Source: Escherichia coli (lineage in GTDB: Bacteria; Pseudomonadota; Gammaproteobacteria; Enterobacterales; Enterobacteriaceae). From it: DNA of 64,000 bases. The stretch lies in the NCBI RefSeq assembly GCF_036507355.1, contig NZ_AP027877.1; one strand, given 5' to 3'. Under the pieces are notes generated by a model. That model was given only the letters and a program-made list of their open reading frames with translations, made no database searches and was not told the DNA's origin. The position numbers were made by a program, and so were the translations under genes. This document shows positions 59,709 to 64,000 of this stretch, in pieces. The stretch's first letter is position 1. The number at the start of each line of letters is the position of its first letter.

Positions 59709-60611
59709 TTATGAAAGCATAGACCGTTTACCCTCCCTGGGTACGACGGAACAGGGGTCCTGGTGGATAATCACATCCGATCCCGGAAAACGCCGTAAAA
59801 TAGCCTGCTCTACCTGATCCGCCACCATATGTGCCTGAACCAAAGGCAGAGAGTCTTCCATTTCCAAATGAATCTGAATAAAGCGGGTCGGCCCTGACTG
59901 CCGCGTGCGAAGATCGTGAGCGCCGCTAACACCCGGCCAGGAAGTCACGATATCAATAATTTCTTGCCGTTCCTCATCAGGCAATGCGCGATCCAGTAAT
60001 GACTGTACCGCCTCATATCCCATGCGTAACGCGCTATATAAAATATAGATGCCGATTCCCAATGCAAACAGAGCATCGGCGCGATGCCAGCCGTACCAGG
60101 ACAACCCCAGCGCCAGCAGAATTGCGCCGTTCATCATAACATCAGACTGGTAATGTAGCATATCAGCCCGCACCGCCTGGCTTTGCGTCCGGCGCACCAC
60201 CCAACGCTGAAACGAGACAAGTATAATCGTACAAATTAGCGCCACAATTGTCACGATAACCCCGACGCCTGGATCTGTCATCGGTGTTGGAGATATCAGA
60301 TGTTGAATACCCGTCAAAAACAGGAATAGTGCTGAACCGGAGATAAACATACTTTGCGCCAGCGCCGCGAGGGACTCAGCTTTACCGTGACCAAACGAGT
60401 GATTATCGTCGGCAGGTTGCAGGGAATATCGCACCACCAGTAAATTCGTCAACGACGCGCCGATATCCACCAGCGAATCCACCAGCGCGGCGAGAATACT
60501 CACCGACCCGGTATACCACCATGCAAAAATTTTAATCAGCAATAGCAGCGAAGCCATCGCCGTCGCAGCAATCGCCGCCCGACTGACCAGCCGTCCATAA
60601 GATTGATTCAT
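59709..60611 (-). CDS. fieF: cation diffusion facilitator (Zn/Fe efflux)
   Basis: 300 aa from MNQSYGRLV; CDF family. Confidence 0.9.
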
Positions 60612-60692
60612 AAATACTCCCGCTATCAACTGACGCTAGTATAACGGAAGCAAATCATCTGCAATGCATTAAGCAGCAGGCAAATTGAGGAT

Positions 60693-60719
60693 AAAAAAAA
60701 CCCCCACATCATGTGGGGG
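60693..60719 (-). terminator. rho-independent terminator (minus strand)
   Basis: Hairpin CCCCCACAT C ATGTGGGGG with A8 on plus strand (T8 on minus strand), about 100 bp downstream of the 170-aa ORF. Confidence 0.75.
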
Positions 60720-60818
60720 AAGACAGGGATGGTGTCACAAAAAAGCACCTAACCTGATGATATAAATGGATTTATGTCAACCGCTGTCCACATAGCGTCC
60801 ACATCGTTCAGCGTCCGT

Positions 60819-61331
60819 TTAATCGGACGCTTTTAAATTTTTATTTTTCCCAGCAGAAAAATTAGCTTTCCCGCTGTTTTGCAACTCAACAAGAGGAGAT
60901 AACCGTCGGTAAACAGCCAAAAGTATCTTTAACTGAACCAGTTCATCTGCCCCCGATAGTTGAACCAAGTTTTTACGTTGTTCTTCACTAAGTGCCATCA
61001 CAGATTCAAGTGATTTAACTGCGTCAGAAACAAGTTCAATCTCTTTAATTTGATTCTGTATACGCAGCTTCTCTGATTTCAACTTTGCCCATTCTCTTTG
61101 TCGATATGTACGCATCACCTGATCGTAAACTTTGTTGGCAGCCAGAATACTTCCACCAACAGCAGTAACTAACTCAGCAATCTGCCAAGAGATATCAATA
61201 AGAGCAGACAATTCAATAAAGCCAGGAGAGGCATACTGAATTTTTTTCACTACAGGACGTAAATCTGGTGGAGTCGCACTGTAAGCCCCTCTAAAAAAGT
61301 TCACCACACTGTGCCCACCCTCCCAAGGCAT
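60819..61331 (-). CDS. hypothetical protein (170 aa; predicted coiled-coil C-terminal half, no signal peptide)
   Basis: AT-rich ORF with AGAGGA SD 9 nt upstream of ATG; own terminator; IS lies about 35 bp upstream of start. Confidence 0.6.
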   Translation of the reverse strand: MPWEGGHSVVNFFRGAYSATPPDLRPVVKKIQYASPGFIELSALIDISWQIAELVTAVGGSILAANKVYDQVMRTYRQREWAKLKSEKLRIQNQIKEIELVSDAVKSLESVMALSEEQRKNLVQLSGADELVQLKILLAVYRRLSPLVELQNSGKANFSAGKNKNLKASD

Positions 61332-61365
61332 TGTTGAATATCCTCTTGATCCTCCTTTTAGGCGC

Positions 61366-62431
61366 TGAATTTACAATCCAAGTGCAACAAAAAAAGAAGT
61401 ACTCATCAACTAGAATATAATTTTGTTTCCACACAAAAACCACTTCCAAATGATGAGTACTTCCTACCGACATCTTACAATAAACGAGCGAGAAAAGATA
61501 ATGATTTTACTCGCACAGGGCAAAAAACAAGCAGAAATTGCCAAAGCACTGGGACGTAGCTCCAGCACCATTTCTCGCGAGCTGAAACGACACGCTCTAG
61601 AAAGCTACAGTGCAACGAACGCACAAAACAGCTATTTGAAGCATCGTCAAAATAGCAAAGCACAGCGCAAATTAGAGCAGCCTGAATATTTCAATTTGGT
61701 GCAAGAAAAGTTTCTGACAGAAAACTGGTCGCCCGAACAAATCAGCGCACGATTAAAATTGGAAAAATCTGAATTATCCATTAGTTATTCAACCATTTAT
61801 CGTGGTATTTATTCAGGGTTGTTTGATATAGGCGAACGCAAAGCCAGTCGCAAACTGCGCCACAAAGGCAAAACACGGCATACAAAAAATCATCATGAAA
61901 AACGTGGCAAAATTCAGATATCCAACCATTTGAACGACCGTCCCATTTCGGCGCAAAATCGCAGTCGCTTTGGACATTGGGAAGCCGATACCGTACTGGG
62001 TAAAGCGGGTGGAGCTTGTTTGCTGACGCTGACGGAACGCAAAAGTCGTTTTGAGTTGGTGAAGAAAATTCCTGCCAAAAAAGCCGAAGCAGTCCAAAAA
62101 GCCATGATTGAATTGCTGGATTCACATATATTGCGGTCAATTACGCCAGACCGTGGTAAAGAATTTGCCCAACATCGTTTGGTAACAGAAGCACTGGGTG
62201 TAGAATTTTACTTCCCCGAGCCGCATCAACCGTGGACACGGGGAACGAATGAAAATACAAATGGGTTACTTCGTGAATACTTTCCGAAGCACCAAGACAT
62301 CAATCAGTGGAGCGAAGTTGATATTCAACAGGTGATCAATAAACTGAATTTACGACCACGTAAATGTTTAGGTTGGAAAACACCTTATGAAGTTTACTTC
62401 AAAAAATCGTTGCACTTGGTTTGACAATTCA
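61366..62431 (+). mobile_element. IS30-family insertion sequence (about 1.07 kb; ISApl1-like by size)
   Basis: Imperfect terminal inverted repeats TGAATTTACAATCCAAGTGCAAC (left) and GTTGCACTTGGTTTGACAATTCA (right) flanking a single transposase ORF; boundaries +/-3 bp. Confidence 0.75.
61423..62424 (+). CDS. IS30-family DDE transposase
   Basis: N-terminal HTH (TINEREKIMILLAQGKKQAEIAKALGRSSSTISRELKRH), GHWEADTV and NENTNGLLR motifs; first codon of track ORF is TTG, true start probably internal. Confidence 0.85.
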   Translation: MFPHKNHFQMMSTSYRHLTINEREKIMILLAQGKKQAEIAKALGRSSSTISRELKRHALESYSATNAQNSYLKHRQNSKAQRKLEQPEYFNLVQEKFLTENWSPEQISARLKLEKSELSISYSTIYRGIYSGLFDIGERKASRKLRHKGKTRHTKNHHEKRGKIQISNHLNDRPISAQNRSRFGHWEADTVLGKAGGACLLTLTERKSRFELVKKIPAKKAEAVQKAMIELLDSHILRSITPDRGKEFAQHRLVTEALGVEFYFPEPHQPWTRGTNENTNGLLREYFPKHQDINQWSEVDIQQVINKLNLRPRKCLGWKTPYEVYFKKSLHLV

Positions 62432-62433
62432 AG

Positions 62434-62532
62434 GCCATAAAAAAAACCATATAGCTGCAAATACTCTTTCGTTAAGACCGCGAAATCAGCTAACTCCCAA
62501 CGATTATCAAGCTCAATTATAACTTTTTCCAT
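62434..62532 (-). other. short ORF (33 codons, MEKVIIELDNRWELADF...) with GGTGG SD that runs into the IS right end; possible truncated gene 5' end
   Basis: ATG at 62532 on minus strand, open until the IS boundary. Confidence 0.3.
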
Positions 62533-62636
62533 TTTCCACCAACCTGTCCAACTTTAAAGATTGACTTTTAAGTATATGATAAACATAGTTTATTAAACGT
62601 GATCCACTACTTTTAATGAAGAATATTCCCCAAAAC

Positions 62637-62663
62637 AGAAAGCCCCTCGACTGAGGGGCTTTC
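62637..62663. terminator. bidirectional hairpin terminator
   Basis: AAAGCCCCTC GACT GAGGGGCTTT with T-rich flanks on both strands. Confidence 0.6.
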
Positions 62664-62672
62664 TGTTTGTAA

Positions 62673-62771
62673 TTACATCCACATAATTTGCTGCCCTGAC
62701 GGCAACGGGTGCGGTCTTACGGCGTGGACTTCTCCCGGCTTGTCCAGGGTAATGACATTTTCTTTGTTCAT
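62673..62771 (-). CDS. small ORF (32 aa, MNKENVITLDKPGEVHAVRPHPLPSGQQIMWM)
   Basis: ATG start, ends just before the hairpin terminator; no recognisable homology. Confidence 0.25.
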   Translation of the reverse strand: MNKENVITLDKPGEVHAVRPHPLPSGQQIMWM

Positions 62772-62931
62772 GGTTTTCTCACTTCTGAATCAGGGTTAAC
62801 CGGCCAGCCAGGCTGACCGGATGAAAATCACAGGCCGATATTGCGGCGGTGTTGCTCCAGCCGGTCGACGCCGTTCACCTTCTCAATCATGTTGATGGTG
62901 TCAATTTCGACCAGCTCCTTACCGTCCATCG

Positions 62932-63138
62932 TCAGCCGGAAATAACCCATTTTTCACCGGCACGAGCCTTCGGTTTGCAAGGATCACGCAATTCAATAAT
63001 TGGTAATTTATTTGCCTTCACCATTTCACTGACGGCTGTCTTTGGCTTCCCTAATAAATCAGCAAATTTATCCACATGAACCGCATCAAGCGGATACTGA
63101 ATCACATAATTTTCAGCGTCCATATATGGTACCCTCAT
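62932..63138 (-). CDS. excisionase-like / small winged-helix DNA-binding protein (putative Xis)
   Basis: 68-aa ORF divergent from the HTH-integrase pair; FADLLGKPKTAVSEMVKANKLPIIEL segment resembles excisionase-type winged helix; family assignment tentative. Confidence 0.45.
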   Translation of the reverse strand: MRVPYMDAENYVIQYPLDAVHVDKFADLLGKPKTAVSEMVKANKLPIIELRDPCKPKARAGEKWVISG

Positions 63139-63198
63139 AGGATCCAGCCCTTTCTAAACCACTCAAAACCGTTTAGACGCTGGTTTATTCTCAAATCA

Positions 63199-63250
63199 AT
63201 GGAACCTATATAGGTTCCAGTTTTGAGGGAATTTAGTCCCTATATAGGCA
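63199..63250. promoter_or_regulatory. operator-like palindromes (CCTATATAGG core, two copies) in divergent promoter region
   Basis: GGAACCTATATAGGTTCC perfect 18-bp palindrome (63201-63218) and CCCTATATAGG (63238-63248), plus degenerate CCCTCATAGG at 63132-63141 overlapping the xis-like start codon. Confidence 0.6.
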
Positions 63251-63259
63251 CCATGTCAA

Positions 63260-63553
63260 ATGAAATTAAGCGAAAAGATTAAGGCCTTGCGTGAGGCTGA
63301 AGGGCTAAGCCAATCAAAATTCTGTGAAATCATAGAGTTACCGCTAAGCACACTTAAAAAATATGAAGGAGGAAACTTTGAACCCGGTGGCACAGCTTTG
63401 CTAAAAATCACTATGCATCCCACATTCCAAAAATATGCTCTATGGCTTATGACAGATAAAACCGCGCCGGACGCAGGACAAATCGCACCGGCTCTCGCGC
63501 ACATTGGGCCAGAGTCAACAGAGTCCAACCACTCCGAGAAAAGGATTGGATAA
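63260..63553 (+). CDS. XRE-family (Cro/CI-type) HTH transcriptional regulator
   Basis: 97 aa; LSEKIKALREAEGLSQSKFCEIIELPLSTLKKYE is a typical Cro/C1 HTH. Confidence 0.75.
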   Translation: MKLSEKIKALREAEGLSQSKFCEIIELPLSTLKKYEGGNFEPGGTALLKITMHPTFQKYALWLMTDKTAPDAGQIAPALAHIGPESTESNHSEKRIG

Positions 63554-63622
63554 CTCTATATAAAGATTACATTTTCACCATTTGCTACCAAGATGGTGAA
63601 TACAGCGCCGGAGGGCTTTCTT

Positions 63623-64000
63623 ATGGCAATTAAGAAGCTCGATGATGGTCGCTATGAAGTGGACATTAGACCTCGCGGTCGCGACGGAAAACGCATCCGC
63701 AGGAAATTCGAAAGAAAAGCTGAAGCACTAGCATTTGAGCGATACACAATCGCCAATGCCAGTCAGAAAGAATGGGGAGGCCAGCGAGCAGACCGCCGGA
63801 CTTTGAGTGAGTTGCTGGACATCTGGTGGAAATATCACGGGCAAAACCACGAGCATGGAACAAAAGAGTTTAATCATCTACTCAAAACCATCAGCGGCAT
63901 AGGTGATATACCAGTGAACAGGATGAGCAAAAGGGCTTTGATGGATTATCGTTCCATGCGACTACGTGATGGTATCAGTGCCGCAACGATAAACCGTGAC
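63623..64000 (+). CDS. tyrosine-type site-specific integrase, N-terminal part (truncated by window end)
   Basis: GGAGGG SD 8 nt upstream; 126 codons open to window end; MAIKKLDDGRYEVDIRPRGRDGKRIRRKFERKAEALAFE is a typical arm-type DNA-binding N-terminus; not in the ORF track because there is no stop in the window. Confidence 0.75.
   Translation, partial: MAIKKLDDGRYEVDIRPRGRDGKRIRRKFERKAEALAFERYTIANASQKEWGGQRADRRTLSELLDIWWKYHGQNHEHGTKEFNHLLKTISGIGDIPVNRMSKRALMDYRSMRLRDGISAATINRD

Follow-up and report, generated by a model that had tools for sequence, protein, structure and literature searches.

What occupies the place of cpxP beside fieF in an Escherichia coli chromosome, and does most of the occupying DNA lie beyond the sequence at hand? 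The question was raised by a stretch of 64,000 nucleotides (nt) from contig NZ_AP027877.1 (RefSeq assembly GCF_036507355.1), here called the window, for which a first-pass annotation had proposed an integrated, integrase-associated element with its cargo mostly past the window end. Our analysis indicates with high probability that the DNA from position 60690 to past 64000 is a grounded (defective, nonexcisable) prophage remnant of the P2 family, of the Wphi/L-413C integration type and the L-413C immunity type, in a known bacterial attachment site (attB). The window was mapped by megablast against 5426 complete E. coli genomes and was then aligned to four annotated relatives. Coordinates follow the window numbering; among the relatives, L001 is strain PSS-08-1, L002 is strain E423, L011 is K-12, and L003 and L004 are further annotated relatives.

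An attachment site between fieF and cpxP

The guanine-plus-cytosine (GC) fraction was 0.50 to 0.55 over fieF and pfkA and 0.37 to 0.47 from about 60.6 kb on. BLAST searches with K-12 cpxP and cpxR against the whole window returned zero matches, and no cpxP was found between 60.7 and 61.4 kb, where an intact copy would have contradicted the proposal of an element. The expectation that foreign, lower-GC DNA fills the cpxP side of fieF was thereby borne out. From the small RNA (sRNA) cpxQ, only 44 nt were matched by BLAST in the window, at 60693 to 60736, inside the core of a phage attachment (att) site. The boundary comprised the following features.

59709..60611, minus strand: fieF (preceded by cdh, sbp, and pfkA), flanking host gene; 100% identical to the annotated fieF of PSS-08-1 (L001)
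60690..60736: attR core, 47 bp; identical to the L-413C attP core and recurring after int in L001, L003, and L004
60737..60807: phage P' arm of the att site; agrees with the L-413C sequence on the right side of the attP core, with one mismatch, as far as 60806/60807

The element started at 60690, slightly to the left of the 60720 given earlier, with a core that matched the attP of L-413C at 47/47 positions (host/phage junctions 60689/60690 and 60736/60737). This core lies at the K-12 attB position in the cpxP(cpxQ)-fieF intergenic region; the empty K-12 site represents the unoccupied attB and differs from the core by 1 nt, in the hairpin loop. In L001, L003, and L004, a copy of the core stands downstream of int, directly before cpxP. 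This second copy (attL) is known from the relatives only and lies outside the window. The P' arm carries repeated GTCCACA motifs, presumed to be arm-type sites for the integrase (Int), and was found in 1014/5426 complete genomes; therefore, the site is commonly occupied. Wphi and L-413C (Peduovirus) share the core and integrate at MG1655 coordinate 4104392 (PMC3448106), and prophage Wphi1 of E. coli W has been placed at cpxP-fieF (PMC3032704), which is the same chromosomal site. Thus, an integrated element does part fieF from cpxP, and of the options offered by the first-pass annotation, "prophage remnant" was the correct one.

The att core overlaps an sRNA gene. It spans nt 15 to 58 of cpxQ (the 3' end of the cpxP messenger RNA; K-12 cpxQ is L011 1831-1888) plus 3 nt and includes the cpxP/cpxQ terminator hairpin. 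Due to this overlap, integration remakes cpxQ at attL, where its 3' end then comes from the phage, while an orphan 44-nt copy of the cpxQ 3' end, with the terminator, stays at attR just upstream of fieF. This terminator copy would end prophage transcripts heading for fieF. A literature search turned up no paper that links cpxQ to phage attachment. Rfam returned subthreshold matches only: Hrs1 (Hfq-regulated sRNA 1) on the att hairpin (60693-60759, plus strand; 31.8 bits versus a gathering score of 56.4) was judged to be a chance match, probably to a terminator-like hairpin, and an actinobacterial sRNA model at the end of the insertion sequence (IS) described below was likewise judged to be due to chance.

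Deletion of the phage body

P2-family phages have the order attL-int-C-cox-...-ogr-attR, with the whole rest of the phage between cox and ogr. In the window, cox and ogr were only about 200 bp apart, and both were truncated. From left to right, the region could be composed as a mosaic of five segments.

60501..61363: fieF, intergenic DNA, and the 3' part of a 213-residue accessory gene, as in L001; 100%
61364..62433: the insertion sequence ISApl1; 100% over 1070 bp
62432..62741: the 5' part of the 213-residue gene and the ogr 3' end, as in L001; 100%
62735..62944: the start of tail assembly gene E and the end of tail tube gene FII, as in L002 14862-15071; 99%
62944..64000: cox-C-int, as in L003; 100%

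The phage remnants between the accessory gene and the immunity region were as follows.

62641..62660, minus strand: ogr terminator hairpin, with a GC-rich stem and a run of T after it; L-413C has the same hairpin downstream of ogr
62673..62741, minus strand: ogr 3' stub of 69 nt, the last 22 codons and the stop codon; the match to ogr of L001 and L002 stops at 62741
62742..62944, minus strand: tail-gene scrap, made up of the 5'-terminal part of gpE (tail assembly), the spacer between the two genes, and the 3'-terminal 38 codons of FII (tail tube)
62932..63123, minus strand: truncated cox, 60 native codons followed by ISG and a stop codon, as aligned to the 90-residue Cox of L003

Translation of the ogr stub ended in ...KPGEVHAVRPHPLPSGQQIMWM, the annotated C terminus of Ogr. 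An open reading frame (ORF) fragment of 39 residues at 62828 to 62947 matched positions 131 to 168 of 168 of the tail tube model TIGR01611 (tail_tube; E = 8e-12), and a full-length relative of the truncated Cox matched PHROG 272 (Cox-like excisionase/repressor; E = 7e-47). The excisionase-like gene noticed previously is thus real, being cox, and is truncated after 60/90 codons. Between cox and attR, the phage gene content consisted of the 69-nt ogr stub and the 210-bp gpE/FII scrap; the full set of replication, lysis, capsid, and tail genes with an intact ogr that a viable prophage carries was absent. The ogr stub, the tail scrap, and the truncated cox stand side by side; about 28 kb has thus been deleted, and in view of the P2 gene order, at least two deletions removed almost everything. 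At the deletion junctions, similarity is imperfect and limited to a few bases.

One junction also created a chimeric ORF of 32 codons (62673-62771, minus strand) in which codons 1 to 10 of gpE are in frame with the last 22 ogr codons. It is a deletion product that kept the gpE start region, and it is not expected to have a function.

The surviving immunity region and integrase

Next to the truncated cox, the repressor end of the phage was preserved.

63205..63259, minus strand: predicted early promoter Pe with two putative C-operator half-sites, recognized by a promoter scan, the repeats, and the published Wphi layout
63260..63553, plus strand: immunity repressor C, 97 residues, intact; 96/97 residues identical to L-413C gpC; PHROG 147, E = 4e-39
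63623..64000, plus strand: P2-type tyrosine integrase, first 126/326 codons; 124/126 residues identical to L-413C Int; runs off the window

Pe was the best promoter match of the region (10/12), with a -35 element TTGACA at 63259 to 63254, an 18-nt spacer, and a -10 element TAAATT at 63235 to 63230 on the minus strand. The palindromic operators mentioned by the first-pass annotation were found as two copies of CCTATATAGG, with O1 (63239-63248) inside the Pe spacer and O2 (63205-63214) 34 bp downstream. In Wphi, Pe has been defined experimentally, and O1 and O2 lie about three helical turns apart (PMC1904263). The layout of the predicted Pe/operator region is the same, whereas the half-site sequence differs, being TATTGGTGAC in Wphi (PMC1904263); the immunity type is L-413C-like and not Wphi-like. 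The XRE-type regulator of the first-pass annotation corresponds to C, and the switch layout of C, Pe-Pc, and cox with paired operator half-sites was present, though with a truncated cox. The tyrosine integrase 5' end was identified correctly as well. Its visible part is the N-terminal 126 residues, with the catalytic domain past the window end; a full-length relative matched the PHROG 1 integrase family (E = 2e-82).

Only C, its operators, and possibly int look functional. C probably still represses Pe, and homoimmunity would follow. Excision of P2 requires Cox, as is also annotated for L-413C. As the C-terminal 30 residues of Cox are missing, excision is expected to be lost; with Ogr destroyed in addition, the element should support neither excision, replication, nor particle formation and should not help P4-type satellites.

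The preservation of this end could also suggest a domesticated stub that is selected for more than immunity, with the cpxQ 3' copy at attR or Int having acquired a host function. Nearly everything has been lost except C, the operators, and the visible int portion, which are intact; in addition, 44 of the 58 cpxQ nt, terminator included, are found in the attR core. However, young remnants usually keep the repressor-integrase end, for which no selection is needed, and the identity of 98 to 100% to active phages implies that the decay is recent. We therefore regard domestication as very unlikely.

The region beyond the window end

In L001 and L003, whose identity to the window across C and int was 99.9 to 100%, int measures 981 bp, the att core follows 117 bp after the int stop codon, and cpxP begins 24 bp after the core. 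With these offsets, the int stop codon would fall at about 64603 (603 bp past the window end), the attL core at 64720 to 64766, and cpxP from 64790 on. About 770 bp of the element would thus be left beyond 64000, and the whole element would amount to about 4.08 kb, of which 1.07 kb is ISApl1. As the int stop codon, attL, and cpxP of the relatives all lie within about 0.6 to 0.8 kb, hardly any cargo should reside outside the window.

These distances bear on the alternative of a complete or largely intact prophage, a satellite, or a genomic island with its main cargo past the window. In its favor, int leaves the window with its 3' half unseen, and full-length P2-like prophages occupy this site in many E. 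coli genomes. However, the phage body belongs between cox and ogr, which have here been brought close together in truncated form, and past int the relatives have just attL and cpxP. Moreover, Int is of the P2 type (326 residues in relatives) and does not resemble the P4-like satellite integrases. A P4-like satellite or genomic island was rejected due to this integrase, the non-tRNA site, and the absence of the satellite genes psu, delta, sid, and alpha among the ORFs. A larger element of this kind is therefore highly improbable. Two claims of the first-pass annotation fell with it. The cargo should not lie mostly beyond the window, since int points to attL and cpxP and the relatives show only about 0.8 kb there. 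Nor should there be an int-proximal defense or accessory region, as nothing lies between C, int, and attL in the relatives; the sole accessory gene is located at the opposite (ogr/attR) end, within the window, and is disrupted by ISApl1.

An accessory gene split by ISApl1

In comparison to L-413C, an insert of about 760 bp with a single ORF of 213 codons lies between the P' arm and the ogr terminator. In the window, this gene is interrupted.

60819..61363, minus strand: 3' part of the accessory gene, codons 34 to 213 and the stop codon; 100% identical to L001 6220-6764
61364..62433, plus strand: ISApl1 (IS30 family), 1070 bp; transposase coding sequence 61450-62424; NCBIfam IS30 transposase, E = 3e-92
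62434..62532, minus strand: 5' part of the accessory gene, codons 1 to 33; 100% identical to L001 6763-6861

Compared to the uninterrupted allele, the insertion is flanked by a 2-bp target duplication (GC, at 61362-61363 and 62434-62435). The terminal inverted repeats are present and imperfect; length, inverted repeats, transposase, and duplication all agree with ISApl1 of the IS30 family. The IS30-family element was hence assigned correctly at first pass. A hypothetical gene of 170 codons, an IS, and a small ORF had been listed as separate features; all three are present, but they represent one gene broken by one IS. The 170-codon ORF (60819-61331, minus strand) is genuine and begins at the internal Met44 (61331), being only the 3' portion of the 213-codon gene, while the small ORF of 54 codons (62368-62532, minus strand) consists of the first 33 codons of the gene running on into the IS. 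Taken together, every item of the first inventory was present, though several turned out to be mere fragments.

The ISApl1 copy was 100% identical over 1070 bp to copies on E. coli plasmids and to a plasmid copy of Actinobacillus pleuropneumoniae. ISApl1 is the element that mobilizes mcr-1. Like the known copies, the one found here has the identical sequence and a 2-bp duplication, but it is the only copy in the window, is chromosomal, and carries no passenger gene. Strain E423 has an independent ISApl1 insertion (L002 8092-9161) about 670 bp away, exactly at the host/att-core boundary (window equivalent 60689/60690); thus, this prophage end has been struck by ISApl1 at least twice. In strain 163, an IS150 is located between the accessory gene and ogr.

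Independent decay at the same site

Among the closest known relatives is the Yersinia/Escherichia phage L-413C, which has the identical 47-bp core, a P' arm that differs by one mismatch, and the same ogr terminator; the identity is 98% for Int and 99% for C. In contrast to the roughly 31 kb of L-413C or of coliphage Wphi, about 3 kb of phage-derived DNA is present here, cox and ogr are truncated, and the accessory gene has been added between ogr and the P' arm. Comparable stubs exist. K-12 has a cryptic P2 remnant (ogr-D') at the locus of the sRNA cyaR, likewise a grounded P2-family stub whose att site overlaps the 3' end of an sRNA gene (PMC3032704). It occupies another att site and has kept the opposite phage end (ogr-D'), whereas the element in the window kept C-int and scraps. 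Closer still is a stub in strains PSS-08-1 and GZ2408P, which shares the att site, the accessory gene, and C-int with an identity of 99.9 to 100% over the shared parts. It arose by an independent deletion and has no cox, tail scrap, or ISApl1; instead, a nearly full ogr is joined directly to the cox start/Pe region beside C (L001 7002-7205), which the Prokaryotic Genome Annotation Pipeline (PGAP) annotated as a 67-residue "OgrK." This stub shows that the prophage lineage has repeatedly and independently decayed to its C-int end.

These comparisons also help to judge whether the structure is a chimeric assembly artifact, in which pieces of prophage and an IS copy from other parts of the same genome were wrongly joined. 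Multiple copies of P2-like prophages and of ISApl1 are frequent and make assembly difficult (PMC3032704), and the exact architecture was unique: in a search of the 5426 complete E. coli genomes, no locus covered 80% or more of the query. However, the 2-bp target duplication is clean, and the IS flanks rejoin perfectly into the uninterrupted allele. The deletion junctions do not contain the long repeats that produce misjoins, and the independent, different stub of PSS-08-1 and GZ2408P at the same site implies that such decay is natural at this locus. An artifact is thus very unlikely.

Several points nevertheless weigh against our interpretation of the region as a prophage remnant. The window ends inside int, which leaves attL, cpxP, and the catalytic half of Int out of view; a second element could in principle follow in tandem past int. 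Repressor activity and immunity were deduced from homology. An exact look-up of the truncated Cox product in public assemblies, with either start variant, gave no record. With an unrecorded Cox and a unique architecture, the deletion junctions therefore lack independent confirmation.

We propose the following history for the remnant. A prophage of about 31 to 33 kb, in which a single accessory gene already stood between ogr and the P' arm, would have integrated by Int-mediated recombination at the 47-bp core; the apparently full-length prophages of strains 4/2-1, 163, and E423, with this gene and in this site, support such an ancestor. Illegitimate deletions, at least two in number (ogr to gpE and FII to cox), would then have removed the phage body, and ISApl1 would finally have transposed into the accessory gene at codon 33/34. 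In the present state, C would be transcribed together with int from Pc and would bind the two CCTATATAGG half-sites, silencing Pe. The likely outcome would be immunity against superinfecting phages of the same immunity class.

The accessory protein resembles part of a defense toxin

The 213-residue protein, which in the relatives corresponds to WP_000416606.1, had no match in Pfam, PHROGs, or NCBIfam, and a tblastn search of 50,697 phage records found none either. The PADLOC model PD-T4-10_B matched the 3' fragment (E = 2e-26) and, at model positions 141 to 346 of 353 and thus short of full-length homology, the intact protein (E = 1.6e-34). PD-T4-10 has been validated as a two-gene toxin-antitoxin system of abortive infection, with B as the toxin (Vassallo et al. 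2022, PMC9519451). The 213-residue protein matches the B model over its own whole length but covers only the C-terminal 205 or so of the 353 model positions, and the N-terminal extension of about 135 residues as well as the upstream antitoxin gene A are missing. A tblastn search with the A protein found nothing credible in the window, L001, or L002. As judged from its sequence, the accessory protein is a relative of a defense toxin domain that fails two defining features of PD-T4-10.

The accessory gene was found in 159/5426 complete E. coli genomes, including apparently full-length prophages at the same site (strains 4/2-1, 163, and E423). A profile search of 1.84 billion representative proteins detected 791 relatives with two architectures. 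The short form comprises hundreds of solo proteins of about 210 to 240 residues whose gene neighbors are not conserved. The long form has about 330 to 360 residues, carries the domain at the C terminus, and covers the whole PD-T4-10_B model; long forms come with an overlapping upstream gene of 140 to 148 codons, and the one tested (from L013) matched PD-T4-10_A. An AlphaFold2 model of the 213-residue protein (mean predicted local distance difference test score of 80) showed an N-terminal alpha/beta unit followed by long helices and had no informative neighbor in the PDB.

The split at codon 33/34 separates off a segment with four invariant residues of the family (D9, W12, Y24, and Y28). The accessory gene is inactivated in this window by ISApl1, and the downstream 170-codon ORF is not expected to be functional. 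A look-up of the 169-residue fragment was uninformative, as it returned only metagenome contigs ending inside the intact gene.

Homologues were also noticed in other settings. In Vibrio contigs (L006, L007, and L008), the short form is found among small same-strand ORFs resembling integron gene cassettes. In Enterobacter (L009 and L010), about 2.3 kb separates a homologue from an Ogr/Delta-type gene at the edge of an insert in the chromosome beside gapA. The family apparently spreads as a mobile cassette of one gene.

We tentatively consider, at rather low probability, that the short solo PD-T4-10_B-like protein may act on its own as a single-gene abortive infection or toxin module and that the position between ogr and the P' arm may constitute a third cargo slot of P2-like prophages. 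Such a slot is described neither in Rousset 2022 nor in Vassallo 2022. If this is true, the ISApl1 insertion in the window would represent the loss of a costly defense gene.

Implications

Neither the kind of element nor its site is new; it derives from a phage lineage already known (98 to 100% identity) and was broken by a known IS. Some novelty is confined to the gene for the short solo PD-T4-10_B-like protein, located at the ogr/att end in P2-like prophages; in the window, this gene is broken. The missing cpxP beside fieF is explained by a common prophage in the published Wphi attachment site, and hidden cargo past the contig end is not to be expected. Of minor value are the chromosomal copy of ISApl1, given the role of this IS in mcr-1 mobilization, and the overlap between the att core and cpxQ. 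Likewise of minor value is that P2-like prophages at this site sometimes bear an uncharacterized short relative of a validated antiphage toxin.

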